This document shows, in pieces, positions 1-35,700 of a stretch of 64,000 nt of DNA. The stretch comes from Antedon mediterranea (lineage: Eukaryota > Animalia > Echinodermata): contig NC_092673.1 in the NCBI RefSeq assembly GCF_964355755.1, positions 36,081,648 through 36,145,647 of the forward strand. Direction: 5' to 3'. The notes under the pieces are model-generated. The model searched no databases, was not told the DNA's origin, and saw only the letters and a list, made by a program, of their open reading frames with translations. How positions within the stretch are numbered: the first letter of the stretch is position 1; every line of letters starts with the position of its first letter. The position numbers and the translations under genes are program-made.

Positions 1-349
1 TCGTCTATTTTGGAGCTAAACGTCTAATTCATGGTTTTATTTAGTGGACTTTAGTACTTATAATTCTACAGCGAAGAAGCCGCGATCAAAGTAAATTACT
101 TGCCGCTAAATGGCATCAGCGGTAACACCTTCTTTGAATAATCAAAGGATGTACTAAAAGTTAACGACACTCTTTTCATTTCAATTCGTACACCCTTTTA
201 GACCTCATGTTCAATATAAATGAACCGCTGAGTTAGGAGTATTTATCTTAAGCTTTAAATGACTACATCTTCTTAGCCACATCCACTAAATGTTGAATTA
301 CAAAGTTATAATTCATATAATAAAAATGAAATTGTTATTGCTATTTCAG

Positions 350-989
350 AAACTAGAATACAAGAACCAGACTGGATGAAATCAACAAGTGGGCAATTAA
401 AGTCAAAACGCATTCGTACAATATTCACTCAAAACCAGCTAGACAGTCTGGAACAAGAGTTTACCCGTCAACAATATATGGTTGGATCTGAAAGACTTTA
501 CTTGGCATCAACGTTAAATCTATCAGAATCTCAGGTGTGTAGATGATCTATTTTTAACCAATAAATCATATCACGTTCTTATTTTTTTGTTTCTGCAAAA
601 TGTCATAGTTTTAATTTTTTAAATCAAGTTTTAACAATTTTATTTTTAGCACACCTTTGATCTTTTTATCACTTAAATTCTTATTTAAAAAAAATGATAT
701 GTGTAAAATAATGTATTACCAAAGGAAACAGTAAAGACTCTTTCTAATATTAAGTACTTTATTTAGAAAGTTCTAAAACCATTGTAAACTTATCGAGATG
801 TGTTTTGTTTCTCAATAGGTGAAAGTATGGTTCCAAAACAGACGAATAAAGTGGAGAAAACAGAATTTTGAAAAACAACAAGCAAAACTAGCTAAGATCC
901 GGGCACTTCAAAATATGCGAGAAAGTGACGGAGAAACGTCAAATTGTTCAGAAACAGAAACAGACGACAGAGAATATCAGAATAACTAA
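350..989 (+). CDS. NOTO: Not/Noto-class homeobox transcription factor, last two coding exons (5' exon not identified, probably upstream of the window)
   Basis: Exons 350-534 (tttcag|...CAG|gtgtgt) and 819-989 (aatag|GTG...TAA) join to [56 protein letters not shown]|[26 protein letters not shown] and NRRIKWRKQ are typical of Not-family homeodomains. Intron at the common Q|VK position. Confidence 0.9.
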
Positions 990-4409: not shown

Positions 4410-7400
4410 ATGATGAAATCATCCTGCATTCCAGGTTTTACACCTCAGCTTTCCCCTCTACAGGAGGAAGAAGAATTGAATGTTCTTTCAGATATTTTAT
4501 ATTCTCATGGTAGACGTCTTCTTGAAGATGAATTATGGGCAGTTTGTAAAGAGAGCGTTGTATCATTAAAATCAATTGAAGGTACAAAAGGAAGATTTAG
4601 AACAATATACCTGTGTCCAGAAACCATAGCTTTTAGCAAAGATGGAGCAATTACTTACAAACCAGCAAGTAAGTTTTAAATATCTTTAATTTATACATAA
4701 CAAAAATTATTATTTGAAAATAATGGCTTGCATAATAAAAGGAACCTTGGGACATGTTTATTTGCCACCAAAGATGTTGACTAAATACCAACACAATACG
4801 TTTAAAGTGAGACAAATTTTTTTCTGAAAGATGATACTTGATATACAAATAGAACAGCTTGAAACTTTTACCTTTTGTGAAGAACAGCTTGACAAAAAGG
4901 ATTTTTGTTACGCCGCTATAGATACATTGAAACTTATACATGGTTACCATAGCATTAAAGTCTTTGTTTTGATTGGCAAATAAAGTCTATTATTATTGCT
5001 TACTTATTTTTCTAGGTAGGTTTCAGTTGGTTTCTCGTTGTGTTGTTTCTCGTAAATTGGTTTTCTACAATAAATCATATTATTTTCAATTTATATTTTT
5101 TAGCAATTTATTCTTGTTGTTATGATACAGTTTTTTGCTTGATGTGTCATCTTTTCTTTTCAATTTTGTTATCATTTATTATTCATGAATTTGTCAGCTG
5201 ACGGTGGTAATAGAACAGTGAGCTTGTCTACTAAAAATGAAAGTTAGTAGCATAACATTTTGTGGAAGTTAGTAGCATAACATTTTGTGGAAGTTAGTAG
5301 CATAACATTTTGTGGAAGTTTAGATTTTAATTTAAACTATGGTTTTGATGATGCATTGTCTTTTTATGGTTCTATTAAGACCAACTCTAAGAAACCCACT
5401 CTAATACCAATCTTTTTACAACAGATTATATGGAGGTTTCGTTGATATGCTTGATTGGTTTCAGTTGAAGTCGGCAAAAAGTAGCTTTTTTAATCAATAT
5501 TTATTAGGAGTAATCTTTTATTAGTAAAGATTAGTTGTTATTTACCATGCATGGCAGCACATACTACCCATGCTATTCTTCTCTTATGAGTGGGTCCTAT
5601 TGATTACTTGGCTTCTTCTCTTATGATCAAAGTTCTTAATTGTTCAAAATAGTGTACTTAGCATTCTAAGAAAACAGCTAAGTATTGACAATCAATAGCA
5701 ACAAACAAACATGGGTTAAATGAACATGTACAACTTTTGTTTGCTTTTCTAAACATACTACCACCTTGGATAAGAGACATTATCAAGTATGCTAATCATG
5801 AATAGAGTGACAGTTATAACATGGCAGTCAGTAGTCATTAAAGGTAACAACAAGTAATAACTTATGAAATGTTTGCTCAGACTACTTTTTTGTCATCAGG
5901 AATTATCATTTTGAGAATTCTATGTGGATGTTTTAAGTGATTTAAATTGTAAGTATTCAATTTGTTAAAACTAAGAATTTGGATGGTAATTTCAAAGCAG
6001 TTTCTATACATAATCAGTTACTATAGCAAATTGTGGAGCACATTGTACCAAAAGATAAATTATTTTATGTCCTACATAAAGGGGTTTCTAATACAAAAAA
6101 TCCCAATTATTATCATATCAGTGTGTATCCAACAAGATGGTTGCCTTCAATAGGCAATATTAATGTCTTAGTTGATTATAAATATTTACATTTTTGTTAA
6201 ATTTATGAGAAAATATATTGAATGTTCTTGTTTTCAATTTGTTTTAATTTCATAAACTTTTGTCAAGATTGTGAAGATAGTGAATACCTGCCCCCAGAAT
6301 ATGAAATATGTGGTGCATCTTTTGAGGTAATTTTGTATTTTATATTATTATCCATGGGCAACAAACAAACAAAGTATAATATTCAATGTTGTTGTATACT
6401 TAAGATGTATTGTCCTCCAAAAACATAAAAAATGATGATTAATAAATCAGACTTTAAATAGGCCATTTTGCAGTTTTAATAATGTTATTCACTTCTGTAA
6501 AAAAAAATAGAAACAAATATTATTTCACTTGTAAAAAGACAAAATAAATGTTTAATTTTAACCAAAAACCATTTTCTGATGACAGTTAAATATTTTTTGC
6601 TTTAAATTGCATTTGTATCAGGTAAATAATTTTTGGTCAAAGTGAATAACTTTAACTAATAATAATATTATTATGTGACATTAAAATGGCATATTAAACA
6701 AAAAATCGAAAAAAAAATGTGTTAGGGGGACAATATATCTTTAATAAATGCAGCTATAGATTTCTAATGTTTGTACACTGGAGTCTAATTGTGTTTCAAT
6801 GAATACTAAACATCAATAACAATCTCAGCTTGGTAAAGTAGGTTTCCTGTTTTTTGACATCATTGATCATCACATAATCCTGTATCATCTGATTGCATTC
6901 ATGAGAAAGTGTTTCTTGTTGCGAGTAATAGTAACCTTGCATTTTATTATTGAATCTGCAAATAGAAACTGTCAAATGTGAGGGAAAGATTTTGACATAA
7001 ATATATATTGATCTGAGTGTACGAGAACTGTGAAGAATGCTGTGTGTAAACAACCATATCTATTAGAGAATATGTGCATTGTACGTAGAGTAATATACAA
7101 TCGTAGCAGCTTTACAATTTAGAATTGTGTGAACACAACTCTTTGGTACTGCAGGCATGTAGTTGAATTATGGAACACACTCTATTTGACTCAAGTATTT
7201 CACTTCCTTCTTGCTGTTTATTTATCTGAAAATCAACTTGTGAATCAATTTGCTGATTAATTGTTTCTGGATAAAAATAGAAAATCTACACCTGCTAATT
7301 GCTGATTGCTGTTATTTTTGGGACCTGAGTTAATTAGATTTTTATTCTAGATAGGACAGAAGAATGATTTTTTTAACAATTGATTTGAGAAATTACAGTG

Positions 7401-10400
7401 AACCATCAATGGCAATACAAAGTAATTGGAGCAAATACAGATAATTTTGAGAGACCGTACATACAAGTTTTTGATTTATGATTTATGTACCGATAATAAC
7501 TACAGCAAGATGTCAAAAGAAAATATTGTGGTGTGTTGAAATTTAATTTATGTACAGTACAGTACAGTATTTATTTATTTATTTATTTAAATATTTATTT
7601 TTTTTATTCATACTAATGTGTATTTAAAATTGTACTAATCCATATAAAACACATTCATTTCTTGGCTACTAAATAATTTAAGTTAAAACATAGCACCACA
7701 TTCTGTACGATTTATTAGACATAGACTAGAGTGGACTTCCTGTGTAAAACGAAGGCAGCTGAACATGCTGGTTGATTGATCACAAGTTCCATGGCAACAG
7801 AAAATATAACAAATTTAAATTTACACATTTTCTGCATTGTTGTTTACCGCTTTACGTGAGGACAATATTGCAATGTGGTTTATTTTGTTTACTATACAAA
7901 ATTATTTCATTTCACAATTTTAAGTGTTAGCATTTTATTATTTGTTCTCAAAATCCTGCTTCTAACCTATTTACGTACTACAGTTTGTTTAACAGAAGAA
8001 ACTTATCCTATTATTTTAGAGTGAGTGAGCACTTGTATCAGAGTTATTGTGATCATTATGGCTACCACCTGCAAATAATTAAATTTTGTTCTAATAGGGT
8101 CACCTGTACTCACTAGCTCTTTGCCTATTGGAAGCAGCCGAATTTAATTTACCAGCAGAACAACAAGTTGAGATAAGTAATGGACTTCTTGGGTTAGTAA
8201 CTCTAATGACCCTAGATGATCCTTCAAGAAGACCATGTTATGAGGAAATTATTACCACATGTGTAACTCATCTTGAAGACAAATCATCTCAGGAAATTTG
8301 TAGAAAACTATCTTCAATTGGAAAAAGTGTCAAATCACAAGAAATTAATTGTAAGTTACTTTATTGAATAGTTGTACACATGATGAAATGAAAAATGGGT
8401 TTATTTAATCCGCACATTAAATGTTTTAGATTAGGAATAAATTTGGCTTGTTTACCAGTAGCTATTTTCTTTAAATTTCAGCACAACATAGGAGAAGTAC
8501 CATTGGAGAAGATGGCAATGATCAAAGTGTTTCACAAGTAGAAAAGTATCTACACCAAATCAAACTGAATGAAAATTTAGGGGAACATTCAAAGAAAGTT
8601 GCAATACAAGATGATTTTGAAGAACTAATTGAGGACACCATGACCTCTAAGGAGGACGGAAAAAAATCTGGTGCATATGATACTCTTTCACAAAGGGCTC
8701 AGGAAATACTCAAGGAGATCTATTCAGGCACAGAAACTCCACAAGATTCTGTATCATGTTTAAAGTCTGAAGAAACTTCACCAATTGAAGGCCAAACTGC
8801 TACAAAAGAAACATTACCAAAGCAGGTCTTGTCTATTGCTAACATTTTACAAAATAGAGCATTATTAAGAGAATCAAACACGTTCAGAAAATATTCCAGC
8901 AGTAATGATATTTCTACACAATTTGTACATAATAGTGATAGAAAGAACATTGAATGTCTTGAAAAATCTTGGAATGAAAAAGATTATTTGGATTCACCTA
9001 CTAAAATCACTAAAACCAATGAACAGCTTTGTGAACAATCAGGAAGAAAGTTACAACCTTCAACAACTCAGCATAATTGGAAAAAAAGTTTACATTTACA
9101 CACAACTAGGAATGAAACTAATTTGTGTGATGGAGAGGAAAGTATTCCAGAAAATGAGGAAAAAGTTAAGCATTCAATCTGTTCAAAAGAACATGGTGAA
9201 GAATTTGTTGTGCATGACCCCAGTTCCTCATCTGATTTACCAAATCCAGTGTCATTTAAAAGAACCACATACTCACACAGTATGTTTCACAAACATTCTT
9301 CATTAAATAAAGAAAGGGATGCTTTTAATGCAGGTCCAAGAGTAAGTGGTAGATTAAAGACAAACAGCATACATTCTTCAATGATGTCGGAAGAATGTAT
9401 TGAAGATAAAGGAAGAGCTACACTTCCACAGGCCTACTCTTCTAAAGCCACACATTTTACTCCTATTGTGATCTCTTCAGATAAATCTAAGACTGAAGTA
9501 AAGCAGAACACGTCACCAGTTAGTGTTGTCAAGTTGAAGGCTAAAATTGCAATGGAGGCAATAAAGAAAGGTCCTCAAATTCCAAAGAAGGTTCCACCAC
9601 CTGCTACCATGCTTACTGATCTGGAAAATGATGCCGCAAATGAGGATAGTAATTTTTCAGAAAATATAAGTCACTCCAACCAGGATAAACCAATTATACC
9701 AACAAGTATTGATTCATTATTAATTGTTGAACATATGGAACAGTCTTTTGCTGGTACTCAAAGTAATGGAAATAAACAACATGAACAAGATTTACATTAT
9801 GAGTCTATTGTACCTTTAACATCAACCTCTTTTAAACCAGTCAACAAAATAGATACTGGTGATGCATTCAACAACTCAGAAACTTTAAAACATAACCACA
9901 TGCTATCTGATTCAACAACCATGGAAAATGAAACAAAATCACCCGGAGAAGAGGCAGCTTCTGTCTCAATGCATGGGTTTAGACAGAATACGGCTTCTAA
10001 CTTATTAAGGCCATCATTTGCTTCTTTGACGTTTCCAGTTGCCACTTCTGTGCAATCATTAATTCCTGCCATTCCTGTTTCAAATTTGGTCCATGCAGTT
10101 CCTTTCAATTTACCATCAACTCAAAGAATGGCATCAACAGTTCAAAAGACACCAGTCAATAATGTTTTGTTACGACCAACAGTTCCTTCTTTAGGTGGAT
10201 TATCTTCAAAAACACAACCTGCCAGTAAGGAAATAATTCACCAATTACCAAATATCTCTGGTCCTATGCAAATTTGTCAAGATCCACATACTGGATTCTT
10301 CCATATAATTCCAGTTGAAATTCCAGGAACTGGCACAGTACCTATATTACAGTCTTCCTTTGCACCAGATGTTGAAGCAGTTTCACCAAACACTTTGAAT

Positions 10401-13400
10401 TGCTCGTTATCACCAATTTCCACAAAAGAAATTCCGACTACATTCTCAGCTAAAACTGATCTTACAGGTTTACATAGTTCAGCATTTCGTCCAATTGAGC
10501 CACATTCAAATAAAACAAACACAATTGCCACTAACAGTTCATCTTTCATTGCACACAAATCTTCCAAACATGCCAAAGACTACTTGCAAACTGGTAAAAC
10601 AAAAAGTACTGGTACTAACAAAGATATAAGTAAAAAGGAGTATCGTAAAAAGTTGGACAAGAAGGTTTTAGTAGTTTCAAAGTTACCTTACAGAAAAGTC
10701 AATCATGAAACTGACTCTGAAAGTAGTGAATCCACATACCATGATCCAAATGTACGTATGCCAAGGTACATGAAAAGAACAGTTAAGTCAAATCATGGTT
10801 TTCAGGAATCTGAGAAATGTCGTAGTAAATCACAAGGTCGAACATTAAGAAAGGAACGAGAACGAAGTAAATCACGAGAGCGTGCAAAATCATTAGACAG
10901 AAAATCACATGAGAAACTTGTTGGACCTGAAACAAAAGTTGTAGTAAAACCTGTTCATAAACTTAGCCAAGATAAACTTGAGAAAAGGACAAAAATGGAA
11001 GATGTCGATGATACAAAGCCAATAGATGCTTCTAATTCACCAACATCTGTATCAATTGTATCACGTGATAGTGGAGTTCATATGAGATATAGCCATTCAA
11101 GTGGTGAAGATGCAACAGGACTTACGGTTTATAATCCTCTGAAAGATGCATTAGCTGGTAACAATATGTTAAGAAAAGTTGTAAAATTGGTCAGAGTTGC
11201 TTTTGCGTTTGATGGGTATTTAGAAAATGGTGTTGAAGACTTACAAATGGGTAAGTTTGTTTTAATTTTGTATCTTCTAATAATTAAATTGTTTACATTT
11301 TCTAATAACAGTCAAATTTAAATTTGTTGGTTTACTGTTCAGGCGAGTATATTGTATCCCTTGCACACTTGAGATGGATGACTTTTGTCAGTGCAATAAC
11401 AGAGAAGTTTTGTGACCTTTACTGGGAAGAGGATTTACTGGAAAGTCTTTATGAAGTGGTGAATGGCAGTTTGCCAAGAAAGTCACAGAAGTAAGTATTT
11501 TAACTGCTACTATGTTATAATAAATTTTAATGATTTTCTTATAAAAACTTAATGAATGTTATTATGATGTTTACTGGTAAAGTAGCAGACCAATGCAAAT
11601 GGTTGGCATATTCTGTATGAACCCTCTTCTGTAGATTTTTTAGTCAAACGTTGAATAGATAAAATTACATTTTTTTTTCAGACCTCTTGCTATGAGCCCA
11701 AGTAGACCAAGACGTAAAACAGAACCAATCATTTTATCACCTAGCAATACACCAGACAATCTTGACAGTGATGACAATGCTTCAATTATTGATGATCTTC
11801 TTCCGGCAGACAACACTTTCATCAAAAAAGGAACCAAGAATAGCAAAATACTAAGATCTAATGTTGTTGCTCATGCTGAATTGTTTAAAAGACAACAAAA
11901 ACCAAAGAGTAAAAAATCTAATGACAAGACAACCAAAGTAAAAGGAGTAGATCCTAAGGATTTAACAGACAAATTGAGTGAGCTTGAGAAAAACACGAAA
12001 GATAGATTAGATGATGCACCTGTAGTCACCTCACGACAGAAGAAAAGACATAAAAATCATAAGCACAATGATAAAAATGTACAAGAACCAATGGAACCCA
12101 TTCCAGAAAAAAGTAAAGAATCAACTACAGAAAGTAAGAGCTTAGATTTCAGGCAACATGACCTTAGCAAATCTATGAGTAGTATTGCAAGTGGTTCTTC
12201 TTTTGGGTCTTCATCAAAAAGTTTGCAGGATTCCAGAGATCGATCAAAATCTGGGAGTTATGTTGCAAGCGAAGGATCAGTAAAGTCAGCAAGTACAGAA
12301 AACTGTGGAAAAGAACACATTTTACAGACTCATAGAAAGCCAAAGATGTTGGCAACATCATTACCAAATCCAACAACTCTTGTACGGCACAGTTCAGAAT
12401 CCAGTTCCAGTTCTGGTACGGCAACCAAGTATAAACTAAAGTCCATCATGTTCAATCACAGACTTACAAAGGCTGATAGTTCTCTATCTCTGATTAGTGG
12501 AGCATCTTTAACAAATACTAAAGGTCTTGTTGATTCTAAAACAGACTCTATTTTATCATTGCCAAGCTCTGTGTCAACTGGGGATAATTCTCAACTTCTG
12601 TTGAATGCTGGTGTCATGTATGGTGATTTGGCTGTAGATCCAATTGTTGAGGATTACACAAACAAACTGGTTGTTAACTGTGAAACACAGCAAGGTATTG
12701 AAGTTAAAATAGGGGTAAGTTATTATTATTTATATTTTTCTAAACACCATAAATGTATGGTATCGTATCCGGATATTCACCCCCTGGACATTTACCTCCC
12801 GGAAAACTACTCCCCCCCCGGACAACAACCACCTGGACCACTACCCCCTTAGGACAACTACCCCTTTAGGACAGCTACCCCCCGGACAAATACCCCCTTA
12901 GGACAACTACCCTTTTAGGACAGCTACCCCCGGACAAATACCCCCCGGACAACTACCCCCTTAGGACAACTACCCCCTTAGGACAACTACCCCCTGGACA
13001 ACTACCCCCCGGACAATTACCCCCTAGGAACAATTACCCCCTAGGAACAATTATCCCCCGGACAATTACCTTCCCCCCCCCCCCCGGGTAATTACCCCGC
13101 GGACAACTACCTCTGACACAATACTCCCCGTAGGACAACTACTTCCTGGACAATACTCCGAGGGCAAATAATCTTTTAGGACAACTACCTCCGTAGGACA
13201 ACTAACCCCTGGACAACTACCCCCGGACAATTACCCCCTAGGAACAATTACCCCCTAGGAACAATTACCCCTTGACAATTACCCCCGGACAATTCCCCCC
13301 CCCCCCCCTCGGGTAATTACCCCGCGGACAACTGCCTCTGACACAATACTCCCCATAGGACAACTACCTCCTGGACCTGGACAATACTCCGAGGGCAAAT

Positions 13401-16400
13401 AATCTTTTAGGACAACTACCTCCGTAGGACAACTAACCCCTGGACAACTACCACCCAGAAAACTATACCTTTAGAACAACTAACCCCCGGACGGACAACT
13501 ACCACCCAGACCATTCAACAACCTGACTCTGCAACAGCGTATAATAAGAATTAATAACTATATTTTATTTCGTTACTTTGACGAATTACTATTCATTATT
13601 GTAAACAAAAGTAAAAGATTGAACATAAATATAGCCTGGTATAAACTGAAGATTGTCACACATGATCATAGGATAGTCGAACGTATTATATAGTACTCCC
13701 TGTATTTACTGTAAAGACTGGGTTCGCTAATAATAATAATAATTTTTGCGTCAGGACAATGCTTCGATAACCACTGGTCTTAAAAGAATTAATTTTTGTC
13801 TCAAATTTGTCATTTGTATTTTTGTACACTTGAAGAATAATATCACTTTTGATATTTGACCTCAATGTTCACTCACCGAATAAACGGCGATCTTTAAATA
13901 AATTCCCCTCAAATAAACGGTGACCGTACCATGTCACTCCCATGACACATCATATGGAATAATCGGCGTCTATTTCCATTAGATTATACCCCCTCCCATT
14001 GAATAAACAACTTTCTTCCAATAAATGTCCACCTAAAAACCACCTAAACAATAAACAGCCCAGACCGTTTTTTCAATAAATACGGTACTTTAAATCTAGC
14101 ACATCTAGGGTCTAGCGTGCTGTTAAACAGAATAATCGGTTAAAAACGGGTGTTTCGAAACTAGAGACCCGAGACCAGAGACCAGAGATCCGAGACCCAA
14201 TACGAAAAGGGAGACCTAAATATACGAAAAGGGAGACCCACGTACAAAAAGGGAGACCCCACTATACGAAAAGGGAGACCCCACTATACGAAAAGGGAGA
14301 CCCCACTATACGAAAAGGGAGACCCCACTATACGAAAAGGGAGACCCTAATATACGAAAAGGGAGACCTAAATATACGAAAAGGGAGACCAAATATACGA
14401 AAAGGAAGACCCAAATATACGAAATGGGAGACTCAAATATACGAAAAGGGATACCCACTATAAGAAAAGGGAGACCCCCCTATACGAAAAGAGAGACCAC
14501 ACTATACGAAAAGGGAGACCCTAATATACGAAAATGGAGACCCAAATATAGGTCTCCCTTTTCATATTGGGTCTCGTGTCAGGTCTCTGGTCTCGGGTCT
14601 CTAGTTTCGAAACACCCGTTAAAAACAGATGATTTCATTTTTACAGAAACCGGTCCTATATAGGCCTATTTGTCTACTTTTAGATTGGGGGGGGGGGTAG
14701 TTGACCGGGGGGGTAGTTGACCGGGGGTGTAGTTGACCGGGGGGGGTAGTTGACCGGGGGGGGGTAGTTGACCGGGGGATAGTTGACCGGGGGGGTAGTT
14801 GACCGGGGGGGTAGTTGACCGGGGGGGTAGTTGACCGGGGGGTAGTTGACCGGGGGGTAGTTGACCGGGGGAGTAGTTGACCGGGGGAGTAGTTGACCGG
14901 GGGAGTGGTTGTCCTAAGGGGGTGGTTGTCCTAAGGGGGTGGTTGTCCTAAGGGGGGTGGTTGTCCTAAGGGGGGTGGTTGTCCTAAGGGGGGTGGTTGT
15001 CCTAAGGGGGTGGTTGTCCTAAGGGGGTGGTTGTACTAAGGGGGTGGTTGTACTAAGGGGGTGGTTGTCCTAAGGGGGTGGTTGTCCTAAGGGGGTGGTT
15101 GTCCTAAGGGGGTGGTTGTCCTAAGGGGGTGGTTGTCCTAGGGGGGTTGTAGTTGTCCTAGGGGGGTTGTAGTTGTCCTAGGGGGGTTGTTGTTGTCCTA
15201 GGGGGGTTGTTGTTGTCCTAGGGGGGTAGTTGTTGTCCTAGGGGGGTTGTTGTCCTAAGGGGGTAGTTGTCCTAAGGGGGTAGTTGTCCTAAGGGGGTAG
15301 TTGTCCTAAGGGGGTAGTTTTTCCGGGGGGTAGTTTTTCCGGGGGGTAGTTTTTCCGGGGGGTAGTTTTTCCGGGGGGTAGTTTTTCCGGGGGGTAGTTT
15401 TTCCGGGGGGTAGGTTGTCCGGGGGGTAGGTTGTCCGGGGGGTAGTTGTCCTAAGGGGGTAGTTGTCCTAAGGGGGTAGTTGTCCTAAGGGGGTAGTTGT
15501 CCTACTAAGGGGGTAGTTGTCCTACTAAGGGGGTAGTTGTCCTACTAAGGGGGTAGTTGTCCTACTAAGGGGGTAGTTGTCCGGGTGGTAAACATCCGGG
15601 GGGTAACTGTCTAGGGGGTAGGTGTCCTAGAACCGTTCTTTCAATGTAATATCTTTCTCAGACATGTAAAAGTATAATGTGTAGGTCCAGTATTTATGCT
15701 GTGATGTTTGTATTTGATAGGTTATAGATCAGGAACTCATGATGGAAAGAAAGATGCGTTCAAAATCACAGAAGTTTTATCATAAAATGTTGGAGGCCCA
15801 GCAAACAAAAGGTAATTTAAGTTGCAATCATTTTACTATATTCATTTATTTTAAAATGTTGTAGGAAACATTTATGTTTAAATTTTACAGTGTAATAATA
15901 AGAATATAATAGTATCAATAGGCTAAATAATAATTGAAGTTGTTGTTACTTGTAAAAAAATACTAAAAAAATAAGAAAAGATGTCTTGAAATTAACTATA
16001 CAATATTATTGTTTCAATATGAAAGCAGCGTTTCCAAAATTAGAACCAGCTCTCCATGAACTTTTAACATCACTATCTCAGAATGGTAATTGTTTGGTAA
16101 CAGCAAATAATTGCTTACTATTAAGAATTTGCTTTCTGTGTTAATTTAGCATGCATGTTAAACATGATGAAATATTGTGGAGTTTGAAGCTACAGTTTGC
16201 ATTTATAGTTTAAATTTAATCTTGATATTTTGTGCATTGTGTGTCAACAAATATATTTAATTTTAATGTATGTTTGTTATCCCTTTTGTTTTATTAATGT
16301 CTATAGCTCCACCTGCTAATTACTGTTATTATTATGTTTCGTATTGCTATTTTCTGTTATGGCACGGCATGCACTGTTATGTATCATTCAATTCATTTTC

Positions 16401-19400
16401 ATAAAGCAATGTTAAAATTTGTTTGTATGTGTGTGATGATATTTTTAATATGTTATTGAAGTTTTTTTTAGAATTTAATGTAGCTAAGTTTCTACCGCTG
16501 CCTTGAAAGTGATGATGATAAAATTTGCTTGATTTTAAATATACAATGCTCAGATTCTAAAATTCTGAACTGTTTTTTTCTACAGGAACAGATTATAAGA
16601 CTATGGTAATTAGAGTTGGAAAAGAAATTGATGAAATGACAAATAAAATTGAATTTCTAGAATCTGCAAAACGTCATCTAGAGATGCTTTATTCCGAGCA
16701 GTGGGGTCTAGACCATTCCTTACTATACACATTTGCAACAAGGTAATATTTTAACAACATGTATATTTAATATGGCTTATTTTGATCATGTTTGTATATG
16801 TCACTCGCAAACTGAATTTTTGTTATTTCAGTATGGGACAGGAACCAATGTATCTTCACCATAGTCAGGAAGAATGTCCTTTGCTGTTGTTTCATTATAT
16901 AAAATCAGGTTCAACTTTGCAGGCAGGAGAGCCACTTGGACTATTCTCATACCTTTATGCCAGGTAAAGTTTGTCTACTTTATATACAATAATAGCACAA
17001 TCAAATTTGTGAGCTTGCATGTTGCTCTGTATGTGGAAGGTGTAATATTTATATAAAGTGTAGTAAGAGCCAACTAATGCTACTCATAATTCAAGTCATA
17101 GTATGTATTGATACTGTATAATAATGGTTCTTTAAATTGCTTTTTTGTTTTCAGACAAGCGCTTCTGGATGGTTACATTCATTATTTTTTCTCTACCTAC
17201 CACTACTATGCAACAACAGATGAAATATTTAAGTTCATTGTCGATAAATTCTGTGCTGCCAGAAGGTAACCATTTTTAAACAATATATCTGCTGTATACC
17301 TATTAAGGGTAATCAAACACAAATTTCCAAATTAATATGATAAAATAAAATATTTCTTTTGATATTTCAGTATGAGCTCAGCTCAGGCAGAAAGCAGAAC
17401 TAAAATCTTGTGCCGGACAATTGATATTCTACAAGTATGGATTGAGAATTACTATGCTGTTGATTTTCGACCAAACTTAAATCTTGTTAATCAGTTGACA
17501 GATTTTATTACAGAAAAGGTTAGACATAAACTTCTCTATAATACATACATACAAAATAAAAAGCTAATGATTTAAAGTTACTCTGTATTCAATAATGCTA
17601 TTTGCTATGCTATTTTATATAAATCAATTGAAGAATTTTATAGTTTTATCTCAATTTTATAGGAATTCATGTTGTTTTTGTGTGTTATTCATTTTATGTA
17701 AGTATGTCTATGTGAAGAGCCTCTTGACGGTTATTTTTATTTATAACTTTTAGGTGATCCGGCCTCATTTATTTACTTTTATGTTTTTTTATGTCTTACT
17801 TTGTACTGACTGTATATTGGCGAAATAAATGATATGATATGATATTTATTTATTGGAGTGCGTTTGTAATCAAATCAGGAAAACCATTACATTAGTTTGG
17901 ATGTGGTTATAATAAAAAGGGTGAGAATTATTTAAAATGCGTAGAAATTTTATTTATAATTAGATCTATGTTTGAATAATGCATTATGATATTGTTTGTT
18001 TTTACAGATAATATCTGTTGATGCACAGGGTGAATGTTTGCTGAAACTGTTAAAGAAATGTCAACAAGAAAAAGAAAAGGATATGTTGTTGGAAACATTA
18101 AGAAGACATCAGGAATGTGGAAATCATGCTAAACCAAAGAAAGTAAGTTTAGAATTAACCAAGTCATGATAAACCAAAGAAAGTAAGTTTAGAATTAACC
18201 AAGTCATGCTAAACCAAAGAAAGTAAGTTTAGAATTAACCAAGTCATGCTAAACCAAAGAAAGTAAGTTTAGAATTAACCAAGTCATGCTAAACCAAAGA
18301 AAGTAAGTTTAGAATTAACCAAGTCATGCTAAAGCAAAGAAAGTAAGTTTAGAATTAACCAAGTCATGCTAAACCAAAGAAAGTAAGTTTAGAATTAACC
18401 AAGTCATGCTAAAGCAAAGAAAGTAAGTTTAGAATTAACCAAGTCATGCTAAACCAAAGAAAGTAAGTTTAGAATTAACCAAGTCATGCTAAACCAAAGA
18501 AAGTAAGTTTAGAATTAACCAAGTCATGCTAAACCAAAGAAAGTAAGTTTAGAATTAACCAAGTCATGCTAAACCAAAGAAAGTAAGTTTAGAATTAACC
18601 AAGTCATGCTAAACCAAAGAAAGTAAGTTTAGAATTAACCAAGTCATGCTAAACCAAAGAAAGTAAGTTTAGAATTAACCAAGTCATGCTAAAGCAAAGA
18701 AAGTAAGTTTAGAATTAACCAAGTCATGCTAAACCAAAGAAAGTAAGTTTAGAATTAACCAAGTCATGCTAAACCAAAGAAAGTAAGTTTAGAATTAACC
18801 AAGTCATGCTAAACCAAAGAAAGTAAGTTTAGAATTAACCAAGTCATGCTAAACCAAAGAAAGTAAGTTTAGAATTAACCAAGTCATGCTAAAGCAAAGA
18901 AAGTAAGTTTAGAATTAACCAAGTCATGCTAAACCAAAGAAAGTAAGTTTAGAATTAACCAAGTCATGCTAAACCAAAAAAAGTAAGTTTAGAATTAACC
19001 AAGTCATGCTAAACCAAAGAAAGTAAGTTTAGAATTAACCAAGTCATGCTAAACCAAAGAAAGTAAGTTTAGAATTAACCAAGTCATGCTAAACCAAAGA
19101 AAGTAAGTTTAGAATTAACCAAGTCATGCTAAACCAAAGAAAGTAAGTTTAGAATTAACCAAGTCATGCTAAACCAAAGAAAGTAAGTTTAGAATTAACC
19201 AAGTCATGCTAAACCAAAGAAAGTAAGTTTAGAATTAACCAAGTCATGCTAAACCAAAGAAAGTAAGTTTAGAATTAACCAAGTCATGCTAAACCAAAGA
19301 AAGTAAGTTTAGAATTAACCAAGTCATGCTAAAGCAAAGAAAGTAAGTTTAGAATTAACCAAGTCATGATAAACCAAAGAAAGTAAGTTTAGAATTAACC

Positions 19401-22400
19401 AAGTCATGCTAAACCAAAGAAAGTAAGTTTAGAATTAACCAAGTCATGCTAAACCAAAGAAAGTAAGTTTAGAATTAACCAAGTCATGCTAAACCAAAGA
19501 AAGTAAGTTTAGAATTAACCAAGTCATGCTAAAGCAAAGAAAGTAAGTTTAGAATTAACCAAGTCATGCTAAACCAAAGAAAGTAAGTTTAGAATTAACC
19601 AAGTCATGCTAAAGCAAAGAAAGTAAGTTTAGAATTAACCAAGTCATGCTAAACCAAAGAAAGTAAGTTTAGAATTAACCAAGTCATGCTAAACCAAAGA
19701 AAGTAAGTTTAGAATTAACCAAGTCATGCTAAACCAAAGAAAGTAAGTTTAGAATTAACCAAGTCATGCTAAACCAAAGAAAGTAAGTTTAGAATTAACC
19801 AAGTCATGCTAAACCAAAGAAAGTAAGTTTAGAATTAACCAAGTCATGCTAAACCAAAGAAAGTAAGTTTAGAATTAACCAAGTCATGCTAAAGCAAAGA
19901 AAGTAAGTTTAGAATTAACCAAGTCATGCTAAACCAAAGAAAGTAAGTTTAGAATTAACCAAGTCATGCTAAACCAAAGAAAGTAAGTTTAGAATTAACC
20001 AAGTCATGCTAAACCAAAGAAAGTAAGTTTAGAATTAACCAAGTCATGCTAAACCAAAGAAAGTAAGTTTAGAATTAACCAAGTCATGCTAAAGCAAAGA
20101 AAGTAAGTTTAGAATTAACCAAGTCATGCTAAACCAAAGAAAGTAAGTTTAGAATTAACCAAGTCATGCTAAACCAAAAAAAGTAAGTTTAGAATTAACC
20201 AAGTAATGCTAAACCAAAGAAAGTAAGTTTAGAATTAACCAAGTCATGCTAAACCAAAGAAAGTAAGTTTAGAATTAACCAAGTCATGCTAAACCAAAGA
20301 AAGTAAGTTTAGAATTAACCAAGTCATGCTAAACCAAAGAAAGTAAGTTTAGAATTAACCAAGTCATGCTAAACCAAAGAAAGTAAGTTTAGAATTAACC
20401 AAGTCATGCTAAACCAAAGAAAGTAAGTTTAGAATTAACCAAGTCATGCTAAACCAAAGAAAGTAAGTTTAGAATTAACCAAGTCATGCTAAACCAAAGA
20501 AAGTAAGTTTAGAATTAACCAAGTCATGCTAAAGCAAAGAAAGTAAGTTTAGAATTAAACAAGTCATGCTAAAGCAAAGAAAGTAAGTTTAGAATTAACC
20601 AAGTCATGCTAAAGCAAAGAAAGTAAGTTTAGAATTAACCAAGTCATGCTAAAGCAAAGAAAGTAAGTTTAGAATTAACCAAGTCATGCTAAAGCAAAGA
20701 AAGTAAGTTTAGAATTAACCAAGTCATGATAAACCAAAAAGTAAGTTTAGAATTAACCAAGTCATGCTAAAGCAAAGAAAGTAAGTTTAGAATTAACCAA
20801 GTCATGCTAAAGCAAAGAAAGTAAGTTTAGAATTAACCAAGTCACGATAAACCAAAAAGTAAGTTTAGAATTAACCAAGTCACGATAAACCAAAAAGTAA
20901 GTTTAGAATTAACCAAGTCATGATAAACCAAAAAGCAAGTTTAAAATTAAACAAGTCATGATAAACCAAAAAGTAAGTTTAGAATTAACCAAGTCACAAT
21001 AAACCAAAAAGTAAGTTTAGAATTAACCAAGTCATGATAAACCAAAAAGTAAGTTTAGAATTAACCAAGTCACGATAAACCAAAAAGTAAGTTTAGAATT
21101 AACCAAGTCACGATAAACCAAAAAGTAGGTTTAGAATTAACCAAGTCACGATAAACCAAAAAGTAAGTTTAGAATTAACCAAGTCACGATAAACCAAAAA
21201 GTAAGTTTAGAATTAACCAAGTCATGATAAACCAAAAAGTAAGTTTAGAATTAACCAAGTCACGATAAACCAAAAAGTAAGTTTAGAATTAACCAAGTCA
21301 TGATAAACCAAAGAAAGTAAGTTTAATGTAATGTAATGTTGTTCGATTTATAAAGCACTTATACAATCAAAAGATTGTCCCAAAGCACTAAGAGAAAAAA
21401 CAGAAAGAAATTACAAAGAAAAAAGATTGGTTTTTAAGAGTGTTTTTAAAACTATGATAAAGGATGCATTTTTGATAGTTTAGGAGTATAGCTTATCCAT
21501 TTCCCCAGATGTGCTTGTTCTGCATCATGTATGATTAATTGGATGTATTGGAAGCATGGAGTAAATAATTACTCCAGGCTTAGAAGTGAAGTAATGAAGG
21601 TTCATCGTTTTCTTATTGTCTCTTTATAGAGGTACTCTATTCGAGAAGTATTGAGTGTTCCATCACGTGCACTGCGAGCTGAAAAGATGCCCAGTGGCGT
21701 TGCATCATGCTTTTCAGCAGCACATAAGAAAGAGTCTATGGAGACACAGTCTATTTACATACCTGTACAATCTGGTGATAAAGAATTTACAATGAGTGAA
21801 CACACAGCACAGAGACTGGCATACCAGCTTACACTTATGCAACAGGTAATTTATATTTACATACTTCATCTCTATTCCAAAATTTCACGTCATGTATTTC
21901 TACCTCGATATTTAGATCTTGTCAATGCAGTTTAAGTTTAAAAAACAATGAATCATTGGAATAGTGTAGCTTGGGCTAGGCATGGGTTAGGTTAGAGTAA
22001 TATTACACTGATATGAGCATATAAGTGCACAAACTCATTATTCTACAGGAATTGTTCCGTAAGGTCCATCCAGTACACTACCTAAACTCTCGCTACAATG
22101 GTATTGGTGTCGGCATGGAAGTGGATGTATCTTTGTCATCTCCTTCCATATCTCGTGCTGAGGTAGAACAAGACTATCCTAACTTGTTTGTTAATACACT
22201 CGGTGATGAGGGACTTGTTCATATACAGTTGGAGCATGCTCGTGAAGTGTCACACTGGGTTGCGGCTGAGGTTGTTACATCAGTTAGTCAAAAGGTAAGC
22301 AAGTGTCACACTGGGTTGCAGCTGAGGTTGTTACATCAGTTAGTCAAAAGGTAAGCAAGTGTCACACTGGGTTGCGGCTGAGGTTGTTACATCAGTTAGT

Positions 22401-25400
22401 CAAAAGGTAAGCAAGTGTCACACTGGGTTGCGGCTGAGGTTGTTACATCAGTTAGTCAAAAGGTAAGCAAGTGTCACACTGGGTTGCGGCTGAGGTTGTT
22501 ACATCAGTTAGTCAAAAGGTAAGCAAGTGTCACACTGGGTTGTGGCTGAGGTTGTTACATCAGTTAGTCAAAAGGTAAGCAAGTGTCACACTGGGTTGCG
22601 GCTGAGGTTGTTACATCAGTTAGTCAAAAGGTAAGCAAGTGTCACACTGGGTTGCGGCTGAGGTTGTTACATCAGTTAGTCAAAAGGTAAGCAAGTGTCA
22701 CACTGGGTTGCGGCTGAGGTTGTTACATCAGTTAGTCAAAAGGTAAGCAAGTGTCACACTGGGTTGCGGCTGAGGTTGTTACATCAGTTAGTCAAAAGGT
22801 AAGCAAGTGTCACACTGGGTTGCGGCTGAGGTTGTTACATCAGTTAGTCAAAAGGTAAGCAAGTGTCACACTGGGTTGCAGCTGAGGTTTTTACATCAGT
22901 TAGTCAAAAGGTAAGCAAGTGTCACACTGGGTTGCGGCTGAGGTTGTTACATCAGTTAGTCAAAAGGTAAGCAAGTGTCACACTGGGTTGCGGCTGAGGT
23001 TGTTACATCAGTTAGTCAAAAGGTAAGCAAGTGTCACACTGGGTTGCAGCTGAGGTTGTTACATCAGTTAGTCAAAAGGTAAGCAAGTGTCACACTGGGT
23101 TGCAGCTGAGGTTGTTACATCAGTTAGTCAAAAGGTAAGCAAGTGTCACACTGGGTTGCGGCTGAGGTTGTTACATCAGTTAGTCAAAAGGTAAGCAAGT
23201 GTCACACTGGGTTGCGGCTGAGGTTGTTACATCAGTTAGTCAAAAGGTAAGCAAGTGTCACACTGGGTTGCAGCTGAGGTTGTTACATCAGTTAGTCAAA
23301 AGGTAAGCAAGTGTCACACTGGGTTGCGGCTGAGGTTGTTACATCAGTTAGTCAAAAGGTAAGCAAGTGTCACACTGGGTTGCGGCTGAGGTTGTTACAT
23401 CAGTTAGTCAAAAGGTAAGCAAGTGTCACACTGGGTTGCAGCTGAGGTTGTTACATCAGTTAGTCAAAAGGTAAGCAAGTGTCACACTGGGTTGCTGCTG
23501 AGGTTGTTACATCAGTTAGTCAAAAGGTAAGCATCACGCTACAAATTTAGTTGTTATGTTTCTATTTGAATACAATCATATTTCAAATGTACATAAAAAC
23601 AGAGGTTTTTTTTGTTTTGAAAGATACCATGTTCAACTGGTGTAAATTAAAATCTTGTTCATTGTGAGATAAAAATATTACATTTTTCGTTATTTTTTCA
23701 AGTACCAAACAGCAATCCTGTGTAAGTTCATAATGATAGCTAGAGAGTGCTATGATATGAGGAATTTAGCCACCTGTATGCAGATTATTGATGCTCTAGA
23801 AAGCCTGATTGTAAGACAAGTACCGGTAGGTTTACATACTTGTGTTGCTTTTTTTTTTTATCAAATAAATTAAACTCATGGAGTCGCTATGTAAACTGCA
23901 CTACTACAAAGTTCTCTCTTCTTAAAGGCCTGGCGGAATCTTCCAAGTAAGATTGGAAGTAGTTTTGAAAAGTTAAAGGCGGCCAAAATCATTTTGAAAG
24001 GTGATGGAGAAAGCCTAATAAAGAATAACATTCATCATGACAAACCTACATTACCATGTTCATTGTTCCTACTGATGCATCTACAAAGTGCTGAGATCGG
24101 TGGATTCACACTTGCTAATGGCATGTATAAGTGGACAAAAATGAAGTAAGAATAATTTATATCTTTTTATCTCATTAAACATATTATTTATCGATTGACT
24201 AAAAACACTAAACTAATAAAAATCATTTTGTAAAAATTGATTGAAAAATTTACTGCATATAAAATGTTGCTCAAGTAGTGCAAAAATTCATTCTACTGTA
24301 TATTGCACAATTGTACACAGTTTGTAAACATATTTTGTTCAGGCTGACTGTCAAATAGGCTACTACTAATTGTACACAATTGTACACAGTTTGTAAACAT
24401 ATTTTGTTCAGGCTGACTGTCAAATAGGCTACTACTAATTGTGCACAATTGTACACAGTTTGTAAACATATTTTGTTCAGGCTGACTGTCAAATAGGCTA
24501 CTACTAATTGTACACAATTGTACACAGTTTGTAAACATATTTTGTTCAGGCTGACTGTCAAATAGGCTACTACTAATTGTGCACAATTGTACACAGTTTG
24601 TAAATATATTTTGTTGAGGCTGACTGTCAAATAGGCTACTACTAATTGTGCACAATTGTACACAGTTTGTAAACATATTTTGTTGAGGCTGACTGTCAAA
24701 TAGGCTACTACTAATTGTGCACAATTGTACACTGTTTGTAAACATATTTTGTTCAGGCTGACTGTCAAATAGGCTACTACTAAGTGTGCACAATTGTACA
24801 CAGTTTGTAAACATATTTTGTTGAGGCTGACTGTCAAATAGGCTACTACTAATTGTGCACAATTGTACACAGTTTGTAAACATATTTTGTTCAGGCTGAC
24901 TGTCAAATAGGCTACTACTAATTGTACACAATTGTACACAGTTTGTAAACATATTTTGTTGAGGCTGACTGTCAAATAGGCTACTACTAATTGTGCACAA
25001 TTGTACACAGTTTGTAAACATATTTTGTTCAGGCTGACTGTCAAATAGGCTACTACTAATTGTACACAATTGTACACAGTTTGTAAACATATTTTGTTCA
25101 GGCTGACTGTCAAATAGGCTACTACTAATTAACTATTTTAACTTTTATTATGCAAATTTTCACATTTTCAAGTAAATATTTCAGATACACTTAGTGTAGT
25201 TTATGCAACATTTTCTTACTTTTTCAGATCTATTGCAAAACTTGTCGACCAGATTAGAGTGTTCCAGAATCATACTTTTACCTTTGAATCTGACGCTGAA
25301 CTTCAGGAGTTGCTACAGAAACGCATCCTTCAAATGAATGACCATGACATACACTCATTGGCTGCCCAGCATTCGGCTAATTTTCACCAGCTTGCTTCAG

Positions 25401-25465
25401 AAAAGAGCTCAAATCGTTTTAAAGTAGCGTTTAAAAAAGTTAAACATTACACTGAAACTTTTTAA
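4410..25465 (+). CDS. KNDC1: KIND-domain RasGEF (very-KIND / KNDC1), 17 coding exons
   Basis: Phase-consistent GT-AG exons: 4410-4668, 6268-6326, 8098-8350, 8482-11250, 11343-11490, 11682-12714, 15721-15811, 16586-16742, 16832-16963, 17155-17265, 17371-17518, 18008-18142, 21630-21845, 22049-22294, 23703-23825, 23928-24145, 25228-25465. N-terminal KIND motifs (LSDIL...LLEDELWAVCKE, YLPPE, GHLYSLA), the KNDC1-like block FAFDGYLENGVEDLQMGEYIVSL...ITEKFCDLYWEEDLL, REM (ILQVWIENYYAVDF) and RasGEF (LAYQLTLMQQELF, VSHWVAAEVV, RNLATCMQII) segments. Confidence 0.9.
5242..5320. repeat. 25-bp tandem repeat x3 in a KNDC1 intron
   Basis: aagttagtagcataacattttgtgg repeated three times. Confidence 0.85.
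6400..6744. mobile_element. Non-autonomous TIR element with TTAA flanks (Kolobok-like MITE)
   Basis: Left ttaa-gatgtattgtcctcc and right gggggacaatatatct-ttaa are imperfect inverted repeats. Homologous copies in this window at about 26646-26900, 34560-34787 and 37254-37576 (inverted) share ttttggtcaaagtgaataact...gacattaaaatggcatattaaacaaaaa. Superfamily call is inferred from the TTAA target and purine-start termini. Confidence 0.7.
12764..15635. mobile_element. Foldback-like element with long, internally repetitive inverted arms
   Basis: Left arm (about 12764-13510) is made of ggacaactacccc(c)-type 15-17-mers; right arm (about 14688-15635) is made of the reverse complement gggggtagttgtcc-type units. 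It fills most of KNDC1 intron 12715-15720. No clear target-site duplication and no transposase ORF. Confidence 0.75.
14148..14617. mobile_element. MITE with 9-bp target-site duplication (Mutator-like), nested inside the foldback element
   Basis: TIRs gggtgtttcgaaactagagacccgagaccagagacc / ggtctctggtctcgggtctctagtttcgaaacaccc. Perfect direct repeat gttaaaaac at 14139-14147 and 14618-14626. Interior is a 22-23-bp tandem repeat (tatacgaaaagggagacccca). Confidence 0.85.
18124..21325 (+). repeat. 40-bp (38-bp distally) tandem array, about 80 copies, spanning a KNDC1 exon end and 5' splice site
   Basis: Unit tcatgctaaaccaaagaaa|gtaagtttagaattaaccaag; the first copy is the real end of exon 18008-18142. 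Confidence 0.95.
22245..23532 (+). repeat. 56-bp tandem array, 23 copies, spanning a KNDC1 exon end and 5' splice site
   Basis: Unit aagtgtcacactgggttgcggctgaggttgttacatcagttagtcaaaag|gtaagc; donor GT at 22295 + 56n up to 23527. Confidence 0.95.
24305..25130. repeat. 69-bp tandem array, about 12 copies, in the last KNDC1 intron
   Basis: Unit cacaattgtacacagtttgtaaacatattttgttcaggctgactgtcaaataggctactactaattgt(g/a); the period is divisible by 3, which explains the repetitive minus-strand ORFs. Confidence 0.92.
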
Positions 25466-26199: not shown

Positions 26200-27055
26200 A
26201 TGCCATATGGACGATCCCCAAACCAAACCGCGCGCTATTCACTAATAGCTATTCCGTGATTGGTTAAATATCTTCACGGTAGAGGGCCGTCCATACTTGA
26301 CATACACACGTGCAGCTTACTAAACTAGGCTAGCTACTAGTTACTGTAAATTCACTTACTTCTTCAAGTATACCAAACGTTCTTTGGATTGGTATATCGG
26401 CAATTTAAATCTTAGGAAGACACTTATAAAGAAGAGGGAAGGTATGTTTTTTTAAATCAAAATTGAGGAAATCTAGATCTCGGCTAATTCGTACGTTGTT
26501 AAAAGAGGTAAGCTCGTGAAATCATATGTATCGTCGCCTTTAGGCTTATTTGTCAGTGTTTTTTAATGCTATCTCAGACGGTATTTAATTATTGTTTTTA
26601 CGCGTGCTAAGGGCCTATCATTCATAACATTATGACATATTACACTTAAAGATGTGTTGTCCCCAAAAACAAGAAAAATTAATTAAATCAGAATTTGAAG
26701 AGGTTATTTTGTAGTTTTAATCAAATCAATCTATTCCGAATAAATGGTTAAATTCAACCAAAAACTCATTGGCTGGCAGCCAATTTGACAATTAAATTAC
26801 AGTTTTTTCAGGTAAATAATACATTTTTTCGATTCAATTTTTGTCAAAGTGGATCACTTTTATGTGACATTAAAATTGCATATTCAACAACAAAAATAGT
26901 TAATGCTTTAATAATAATCAGCTTCTGCATAATCCAAAATCACCTTCGTGAACTCTTAACGAGCGGAAGTTATTTTTCCGAGGTACTGATATTATAATCT
27001 CAACAACCAGACCAGAAGCTGTTCTGGCTTAGCCTATATCATTTTAAAAAAAATC

Positions 27056-28603
27056 ATGGCGGACTCGGTAATAAAAACGATCATTTTAATGCTACTGATA
27101 ACTTTACTCAGTGTTGGAAATGGCCGACATACACATAGACGGAATAAAACTAGAGGCGACCCCAAGAAGAAGAACGTATTAATAATGTTTGTTGACGATG
27201 GTGGATTTGAAAGCCCAGTGTACAATAATACAGTCTGCAAAACTCCAAACTTGTCCGCATTTGCTAAGCGTAGCGTTGTATTACGTAGAGCCTATACATC
27301 TGTGAGCAGTTGTTCACCAAGTCGCTCTGCTTTACTCACTGGACTACCACAGCATCAGAACGGTATGTACGGATTACATCACTCATTCCATCATTTTGAA
27401 TCATTTGAAGGAGTCAAAAGTATCCCACTGATTCTAAAGGACCATGGTGTTCGGACGGGCATAATTGGTAAGAAGCATATAGGGCCTGATGACGTTTATA
27501 AATTCGATTACGAAAGAACAGACGAACATTACAGTATGTTACAAGTTGCTAGGAACATCACTAACATGAAAATTCTTGTGAATGAATTTCTATCCATGGA
27601 TGATCGTCCGTTTTTCCTTTATATTGCTTTCAAAGATGTTCACAGATGCGATGCAGGTATTGAAAAATATGGACAATTTTGTGAACGATTTGGAAATGGT
27701 AGCCAAGAGACGGGAACTATTCCAGATTGGAAACCAGCATATTACGACCCATTTGACGTCATTGTGCCATACTTTCTACCCGACACATTGGCAACCAGAC
27801 AAGAAATTTCAGCACAGTATACGTCGGTCAGTAGAATGGACCAAGGGGTCGGACTTTTCCTAAACGAACTAAAATCGTTGGGGTTCCTTGATAACACGTT
27901 GGTTATCTACACTGCAGACAATGGTATACCTTTCCCTAACGCAAAAACAAATCTGTACGAAAGCGGCATGGGTGAACCAATGATTATATCATCTCCTATG
28001 CACACCGAACGTTGGGGTGAGATTAGTGATGCTATGGCCAGTACTATTGATATTGTACCGACAATACTAGATTGGTTTGGAGTTGACTACCCATCATACC
28101 TCCTTAATGGTGTCACTGTGAATCTGAGTGGCAAATCTTTACTTCCAATATTGACTTCTGAACCAACAACGGGAGAGAAGTTTGATGAAGTGTTTTCCAG
28201 TCATGATCTACACGAAATAACAATGTACTACCCAATGAGAGTTGTACGCAATCGTCAGTACAGACTAATACATAACCTGAACCACGCCACGTCATATCCG
28301 ATCGCACTCGACATTTTCATGTCCCCAACATTCCAAGACACGTTAAACCGATCCCATGAAGGAAAGCCAACCAACTGGTTCAAGTCTTTACACCAGTATT
28401 ACTATCGACCAGAGTGGGAACTGTACGATGTCAACAATGATCCACAAGAATTGACCAACTTGATAGATAACTCGACACTGGCTGACATGGTGAAGAACCT
28501 GAAGACCAGCTTACAGGCATGGCTAAAAGAAACCAATGATCCGTGGCAATGCCTACCTAATGGCGTGTTAGTTGGGTCTGAATGTTGGCCTCTTTATAAC
28601 TGA
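27056..28603 (+). CDS. SGSH: N-sulphoglucosamine sulphohydrolase (sulfamidase)-like, single coding exon
   Basis: 515-aa ORF with hydrophobic signal peptide, NVLIMFVDDGGFES, formylglycine motif SSCSPSRSALLTGLPQHQNGMYGLH, RTGIIGKKH, YTADNGIPFP, HEITMYYPMR, YYYRPEWELYD and TNDPW. Probable 5'-UTR exon ending at 26441 (AAG|gtatgt). Confidence 0.95.
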   Translation: MADSVIKTIILMLLITLLSVGNGRHTHRRNKTRGDPKKKNVLIMFVDDGGFESPVYNNTVCKTPNLSAFAKRSVVLRRAYTSVSSCSPSRSALLTGLPQHQNGMYGLHHSFHHFESFEGVKSIPLILKDHGVRTGIIGKKHIGPDDVYKFDYERTDEHYSMLQVARNITNMKILVNEFLSMDDRPFFLYIAFKDVHRCDAGIEKYGQFCERFGNGSQETGTIPDWKPAYYDPFDVIVPYFLPDTLATRQEISAQYTSVSRMDQGVGLFLNELKSLGFLDNTLVIYTADNGIPFPNAKTNLYESGMGEPMIISSPMHTERWGEISDAMASTIDIVPTILDWFGVDYPSYLLNGVTVNLSGKSLLPILTSEPTTGEKFDEVFSSHDLHEITMYYPMRVVRNRQYRLIHNLNHATSYPIALDIFMSPTFQDTLNRSHEGKPTNWFKSLHQYYYRPEWELYDVNNDPQELTNLIDNSTLADMVKNLKTSLQAWLKETNDPWQCLPNGVLVGSECWPLYN

Positions 28604-29384
28604 TGGAGCAGCCATGTATCGCACAATAGCACAATTATTACATTCATTGATATTCTAAAATACTACCTCATTTTTTTCTTAACGGCTAAAACAATCCATG
28701 ACATGTTATGGATACTGGCCTTATTATTATTATTATTGTTATTATTAATGTGAACTTGCAATGGTATATTGGCATGCTTCGTATATTTAGGGCTTACGCC
28801 TATTATGTATTATGGTATATTATGTATTTTCATACATTTTCATAATATTATTATAAAGAAACTTTATTTGTATTGTAATAAACACAGTAGCCATGATTTT
28901 CTTTTAAGTCATTTAATATTAATAAGCATCAGGGTTGTATAACAGTACGGTAAATGGTTTAAAATTAAAAACAATGTAAATACTACCGTTTTACCATAAT
29001 GCACGGATGCATGCATGAATGTTGTACCGGTTTACCATAATGCACGGATGCATGAATGTTGTATATAGAAGTACTGTAGTTTGTTGAATGATGTTACTGA
29101 ACCAATTTCACAAACATATCAGTTACATCGAATATAGTAGACTATTACTCCTTGGTACATTATCTGACCCATTTAAATCGTGAAATTATCGTAAATTATT
29201 ATTCACGATCGATATCGTGAAACACAGTTACACTAAATGTTAATAATGAGCCACCTGCTATAGTGACTGTCTAATTCACCCCATCATTCTCTTTTTTTTT
29301 AACGTCTCTCGATGCCACTGTGCTTGCCAGGTCATTGATCCATCGAGAGCGACATCATTTTTCAGAATGATAACATTCATGTGC

Positions 29385-35430: not shown

Positions 35431-35700
35431 CAGGGGGCGCTATTATAATCGAGCGTTCTCATCCCGTGCTCAGATTTTGCTGGTGTGGTTTTTTCGCGGA
35501 TTCATGCGGCTACTGTACTGCTGCTAGGCTAGTTTGTTACGTACATGGCCGTGTGTATGATCGGGAATATGGAGTGACTTGCAAAGTTAGTCGCTTTACA
35601 TTTCATGTTGGTTGACTATTTTGTTTAAAGAAGTTTGACGGATAGCTATTGTTTCATAATCGTCGTAATGTTCTGCATATGATATGGAACTCAGCAGATC

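Follow-up and report, generated by a model that had tools for sequence, protein, structure and literature searches.

Which 5′ splice site is used when the donor of a coding exon is repeated some eighty times down the intron that follows it? This question is raised by a minisatellite that lies across an exon-intron boundary within a window of 64,000 nucleotides (the whole stretch of DNA analysed) from Antedon mediterranea. The source genome is AT-rich. We read the array, with good confidence, as a 'mirage' minisatellite, in which the first donor is the one used in the RNA seen and the remaining copies are probably passengers that splicing ignores.

The array and its host gene

Nine sequencing runs contain the gene, and four of them were compared with positions 16400-18200 of the window: X4, from the window's own sample and DNA-like; X5, from a second sample, of organism A; and X8 (DNA) and X9, both from a related organism B. 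The host gene and the parts of it that flank and carry the array are as follows.

4490..25461 (+): host gene, with a KIND-like start and RasGEF_N and RasGEF domains (open exon chain and Pfam; upstream of 8098 the exon models are tentative)
18008..18142 (+): coding exon, 135 nt, phase 0-0 (open exon chain; X5 and X9 contigs cover 18006-18142)
18124..21325 (+): minisatellite across the exon-intron boundary, made up of 80 complete units and a partial one of 28 bases, with 81 donor-type sites, 79 of them exact
18143..18148 (+): authentic 5′ splice site AAA/GTAAGT, copy 1 (both X5 and X9 are spliced from 18142)
21326..21629 (+): unique sequence that completes the intron, including the pyrimidine tract and the AG of the acceptor (from sequence)
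21630..21845 (+): next coding exon, 216 nt (exon chain and spliced contigs)

With the splice from 18142 to 21630 in place, the chain of 15 exons that runs from 8098 to 25461 is open over 2005 codons, for which Pfam matches were obtained to RasGEF_N (E 3e-06) and RasGEF (E 2e-07), together with a match to KIND that is below the cut-off (E 0.015). This architecture is what we take to be that of KNDC1 (very-KIND). A candidate exon at 16026-16085 was rejected, as it is skipped by both X5 and X9.

Analysis of 18124-21325 by TRF gave a period of 40, 80.7 copies and 98% matches, confirming the place that the first-pass annotation had given to the array, and its estimate that the array makes up about 90% of a 3.5-kb intron agrees well with the 91% found for the 3487 bp of 18143-21629. 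The units are of minisatellite size and stand head to tail, and the unit lies across the true exon-intron boundary with the splice site duplicated, its exonic part being the last 19 bases of exon 18008..18142. A total of 81 donor-type anchors were located from 18143 to 21317, all preceded by AAA; 79 carry the exact GTAAGT, and the remaining two read GCAAGT (at 20935) and GTAGGT (at 21125). The description of about 80 perfect GTAAGT donors in a row was thus right in number, with two sites altered. Likewise, the proposal that each unit repeats the last 19 exon nucleotides plus AAA/GTAAGT stands for AAA (81/81) and for GTAAGT (79/81) but not for the 19 exon bases, which are copied exactly before 46 of the 81 donors, the true donor counted. 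The context from -3 to +6 is identical in 79/81 copies, in agreement with the claim that the copies share the U1 pairing context of the true donor. At the rate in the rest of the window (14 GTAAGT outside the array), only about 0.7 would be expected in 3.2 kb, and a 16-base unit motif gave 80 matches, every one within the array, against 0.15 in shuffles.

The 80 full units, of 11 types, measure 40 bp in 67 cases and 38 bp in 13. The 38-bp type has a single early member, unit 65 (20703), and otherwise fills units 68-79 (from 20821) as one block, after which the last full unit is again 40 bp and of the same type as the first. Since the 13 units of 38 bp all fall within units 65-79, and one 40-bp type occupies both ends of the series of full units, the change of unit length is a step between two blocks and not the gradient from 40 to 38 bp that had been described. 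The distal 38-bp block itself, said to take over after about 20730, is real, with its first member at 20703, its main body from 20821 and a final unit of 40 bp. At a higher level the array is organised into three blocks.

18143..19342 (+): 30-unit block of 1200 bp, copy 1 (1 difference from 19343-20542)
19343..20542 (+): 1200-bp block, copy 2 (from the comparison with copy 1)
20543..21316 (+): units 61-80, a distal block with more variation, to which the 13 units of 38 bp and the two damaged donors are confined

Units 1-30 and units 31-60 thus form a tandem repeat of 1200 bp with a single difference, and the match at a lag of 30 units (0.97) was reached by none of 20000 shuffles. Mean pairwise differences are 0.45 among the exon-side units 1-60, as compared with 1.44 among the distal units 61-80. 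The block duplication shows past turnover of the array. The distal block would be the older part, with the growth on the exon side following later and involving one large unequal exchange.

The presence of the array in DNA was examined with X4. The unique depth of this run is 308-324, and its contig ends at 18153, where 31-mers turn repeated, the depth in the last two bins being 50595 and 17297. The summed depth at 18178 is 19855, including 3759 with the 2-base deletion of the 38-bp unit. These values are roughly 61-64 and 12 times the unique depth, set against 80 and 13 assembled units; as depth summed over contigs does not truly measure copy number, the estimate holds for the order of magnitude only. 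The data support the presence of the array in X4 with about as many copies as were assembled, and the array is no invention of the assembly. It is unlikely that a real array owes part of its length to the assembly, either by writing the 1.2-kb block twice or by merging two alleles. The two blocks differ at just one of 1200 bases, as this reading would predict, and 61-64 times the unique depth falls between 50 and 80 units; against this, the one difference does separate the two blocks, the 38-bp share of the depth (0.19) is closer to that of the assembled array (0.16) than to that with a single block (0.26), and the same limit on summed depth applies to the intermediate value. A partial duplication in the assembly is therefore less likely than a real unequal exchange. 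The view of the first-pass annotation, real stepwise expansion and not a collapsed assembly, stands as regards the reality of the array; as the 1.2-kb duplication of units 1-30 and 31-60 indicates, its growth was not only stepwise.

Donor use and the read-through stop

In order to see which donor is used, we turned to X5 (depth 19) and X9 (depth 54), each of which yielded one contig, unbroken across four upstream GT-AG introns. The run records do not list RNA, and both were treated as cDNA on the ground that they yield spliced contigs. Both contigs pass from 18142 into 21630, X5 exactly and X9 with 1 change in 30. This junction identifies the first donor as authentic: a normal mRNA is made from it in both samples, the predicted end of the exon at 18142 is borne out, and the proposed comparison of junctions into 21630 from 18142 and from later donors comes out for 18142. 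The junctions listed in the X5 and X9 contigs include none from a later donor; such contigs drop rare variants, so that low-level use of donors 2-3 could escape them, and decay of RNA carrying a stop would mask it further. X5 also holds contigs matching the array, with a summed depth of 39 at 18178, above the 19 of the mRNA; these are read as collapsed pre-mRNA or DNA, which here look the same as cryptic products would.

For the origin and persistence of the array we propose the following. A local duplication across the boundary, in a repeat-prone genome, likely seeded the minisatellite, which would then have grown by slippage and unequal exchange, including the one 1.2-kb block duplication. 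By analogy with human F7, it is probably tolerated because the donor closest to its own exon is chosen, either by oriented scanning or by exon definition, and rare leaks would bear a premature stop and be degraded. The copies would on this account be neutral. The exon would measure 135, 175, 215, 255 or 295 nt according to the donor used, and only the first few donors of the array would give exons inside the usual size range. Masking of the decoys by RNA folding was ruled out, as no unusual fold was detected (z +0.86).

Read-through past the first donor meets a stop at codon 9, and the same stop is included by all 80 downstream donors. The earlier statement that every downstream donor is poison is correct to this extent (80/80), but such a stop is ordinary for the introns of this gene. 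Among the 14 modelled introns, the read-through stops fall at codons 2, 2, 2, 2, 2, 6, 9, 16, 18, 19, 20, 24, 30 and 46, and since 6 of the 13 other introns stop earlier, the 'poison' is nothing special. An early stop is the default for intron sequence.

These observations bear on a regulatory reading, according to which the array is a ladder of poison donors or a sink for U1 snRNP, transcripts from later donors are degraded and array length tunes the output. With 79/81 donors intact and the stop in all 80 alternatives, the array has what such a device would need; array-matching contigs are present in X5, and the minisatellites of human CBS and 6-16 leak to two downstream sites, according to the available excerpts of PMC1557585. 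We nevertheless consider this reading improbable. The first donor gives the only junction among those listed, a stop at codon 9 falls in the middle of the range for the 14 introns, the intact donors follow from units that are about 99% alike throughout, and 9 of the 13 window arrays as long sit away from splice sites. In addition, the close relative B probably lacks such an array. In B, 22 of the 685 exon letters compared are changed (X9), and its DNA contig X8 aligns up to 18154 and continues for 1389 further letters unbroken; arrays of this kind break assemblies, so that a near-identical one is not expected in B, and its probable absence is judged from this behaviour of the assembly in a comparison without an outgroup.

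That the copies serve as ratchet points for recursive splicing, or mark intron birth by AG/GT duplication, is very improbable and largely refuted by the sequence: each unit does carry a donor, and mirages have been put forward as a source of new introns (PMC3087553, in the excerpt available), but AG precedes none of the 81 donors, leaving no AG/GT, and in the 14 bases before each of the unit's five AGs there are 3-7 pyrimidines, as compared with 9-12 at seven true acceptors of the gene, so that the combination of AG/GT with a pyrimidine tract is lacking.

Other boundary-spanning arrays in the window

The mirage reading of the array at 18124..21325 can be set beside three further boundary-spanning arrays in the window, one in the same gene and two in a single intron of MAK16, a gene identified by Pfam matches to L28e and Mak16.

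22245..23533 (+): second donor-spanning minisatellite, 56 bp, with 23 donors AAG/GTAAGC (TRF and frame test)

This second array lies two introns downstream in the host gene, where the predicted junction is 22294-23703, and among its first 7 donors tested the first alone is predicted to keep the frame open. At its 5′ end the MAK16 intron, with the predicted junction 45741-50944, carries 7 donors in units of 122 bp, and at its 3′ end 104 intact acceptors in units of 40 bp. As judged from the reading frame, the full 286 residues of MAK16 would be obtained only from the first donor and the last acceptor, early stops being met from 6/6 other donors and from 103/103 other acceptors; of its two exons, one matches the profile at positions 1-54 and the other at 57-115. 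If the last acceptor proves to be the one used, this would fit exon definition better than pure 5′-to-3′ scanning.

The window holds 13 arrays with a period of at least 20 and about three copies or more, which were compared with 81 splice sites, partly read by eye. Four of the 13, the present array included, span a splice site, against 1.25 expected (P 0.028), and nine of these longer arrays touch none. With the present array left out, the enrichment at splice sites is not significant (3/12 against 1.17 expected, P 0.10). It is doubtful, though conceivable, that boundary arrays are frequent and extreme in this species and always spliced at the site nearest their own exon, that is, at the first donor or the last acceptor.

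Comparison with known arrays and significance

The array likely belongs to a class already described in human F7 and in amphioxus. As given in the available excerpts of Borensztajn et al. 2006 (PMC1557585), intron 7 of human F7 contains a 37-bp VNTR of 5-9 copies, and in minigenes only the most upstream of its identical donors is used, while its knock-out activates the next. F7 IVS7 and the present array are alike in unit size, in the first unit crossing the boundary, in the repetition of donors downstream and in the most upstream donor being the only one seen in use. They differ in that F7 has 5-9 copies with 4 exonic bases per unit, whereas 81 copies with 19 exonic bases per unit are found here, and the F7 mechanism was tested with minigenes, whereas the present evidence is the main junction only.

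The amphioxus 'mirage' minisatellites, reported for Adh3, the globins BflGb6 and BflGb9, troponin C and PGBD5 (PMC3087553, PMC3902484), leave splicing undisturbed (PMC3087553). In the excerpts of these papers no aberrant mRNA is reported for them; they have units of 10-160 bp and occur at both 5′ and 3′ boundaries, with several in one genome, and in these latter respects the arrays found here are similar. BflGb6 has 3-6 units there; the counts here are 81 donors and, in MAK16, 104 acceptors. Instability of length is demonstrated for the amphioxus mirages; for the present array, length is known from one assembly and from collapsed contigs. Reiteration of a donor by a minisatellite is also described, in the excerpts of PMC1557585, for CBS IVS13 (15-20 units), intron 2 of 6-16 (25 pseudo-sites), lamin B2 and PDGF intron 4. 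CBS and 6-16 differ in using two downstream sites as well, none such being found among the junctions listed here. Our literature search found no genome-wide account of VNTRs overlapping splice sites, and a search for an echinoderm counterpart returned only the human F7 paper (PMC1557585).

Within this class the present array stands out by its 81 copies, where the excerpts of the cited papers name no more than 25, and by the three further arrays in the same window. It indicates that 80 near-identical competitors need not disturb the main splice, while the precedents in those excerpts have 5-25 copies. Such arrays can mislead both gene prediction and short-read assembly. If the pattern were true genome-wide, it would offer a natural test of exon definition against 5′-to-3′ scanning, and array length would possibly be a heritable dial on NMD-linked expression.

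Second donor array and other elements of the RasGEF gene

The RasGEF gene carries, in addition to the main donor array, a second one, in which AG|GT is found at each donor.

22245-23533 (+), second donor array, 56-bp unit, 23 donors

At 16026-16085 (+), a 60-nt exon-like stretch lies in frame and is absent from both spliced contigs, X5 (second sample of the same organism) and X9 (related organism B), and is possibly a minor cassette exon or a chance occurrence. The intron upstream of the main donor array includes a dispersed high-copy element at 17563-17874, with depth up to 57000 in X4, a DNA-like run of the window's own sample; the contig of organism B skips these 312 bases, and therefore the element is probably an insertion in A. 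mediterranea.

By eye, an intron is full of GC-rich arrays (units of 14-22 bp) at 12809-15630, and mirror-image blocks (12809-13503 versus 14691-15630) flank a 22-bp array with inverted ends, together looking like foldback or MITE-type elements.

Neighbouring genes

Among intron-rich neighbours, the sulfatase gene at 26990-28603 (+), with an SGSH C-terminal domain, carries no introns and is possibly a retrocopy. Four other genes were read by eye only, three of them with presumptive names taken from motifs.

349-989 (+), presumably a homeobox gene
29300-30548 (-), multi-exon gene, given no name
35685-39427 (+), presumably a mitoferrin-like carrier gene
41395-43440 (-), presumably an ADP-ribosylhydrolase-like gene

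The MAK16 intron and further minisatellites

Two arrays identified from the sequence span the boundaries of the MAK16 intron, 45742-50943 (+).

45645-46499 (+), donor array, 122-bp unit
46563-50950 (+), acceptor array, 40-bp unit

The intron starts with 7 donor copies and ends with 104 intact acceptor copies, besides 6 further copies with AG changed to AT; AG|GT is present in every acceptor copy, and each 122-bp donor unit also generates a TTTCAG acceptor-like site. As predicted from the reading frame, only pairing of the first donor with the last acceptor would preserve the frame, and this double array is arguably more striking than the main donor array at 18124-21325. Five more minisatellites overlap no splice site.

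24304-25130, 69-bp unit
31305-31816, 29-bp unit
38273-38742, 20-bp unit
57583-57876, 41-bp unit
59024-59711, 56-bp unit

Tandem expansion looks like a general tendency of this genome.
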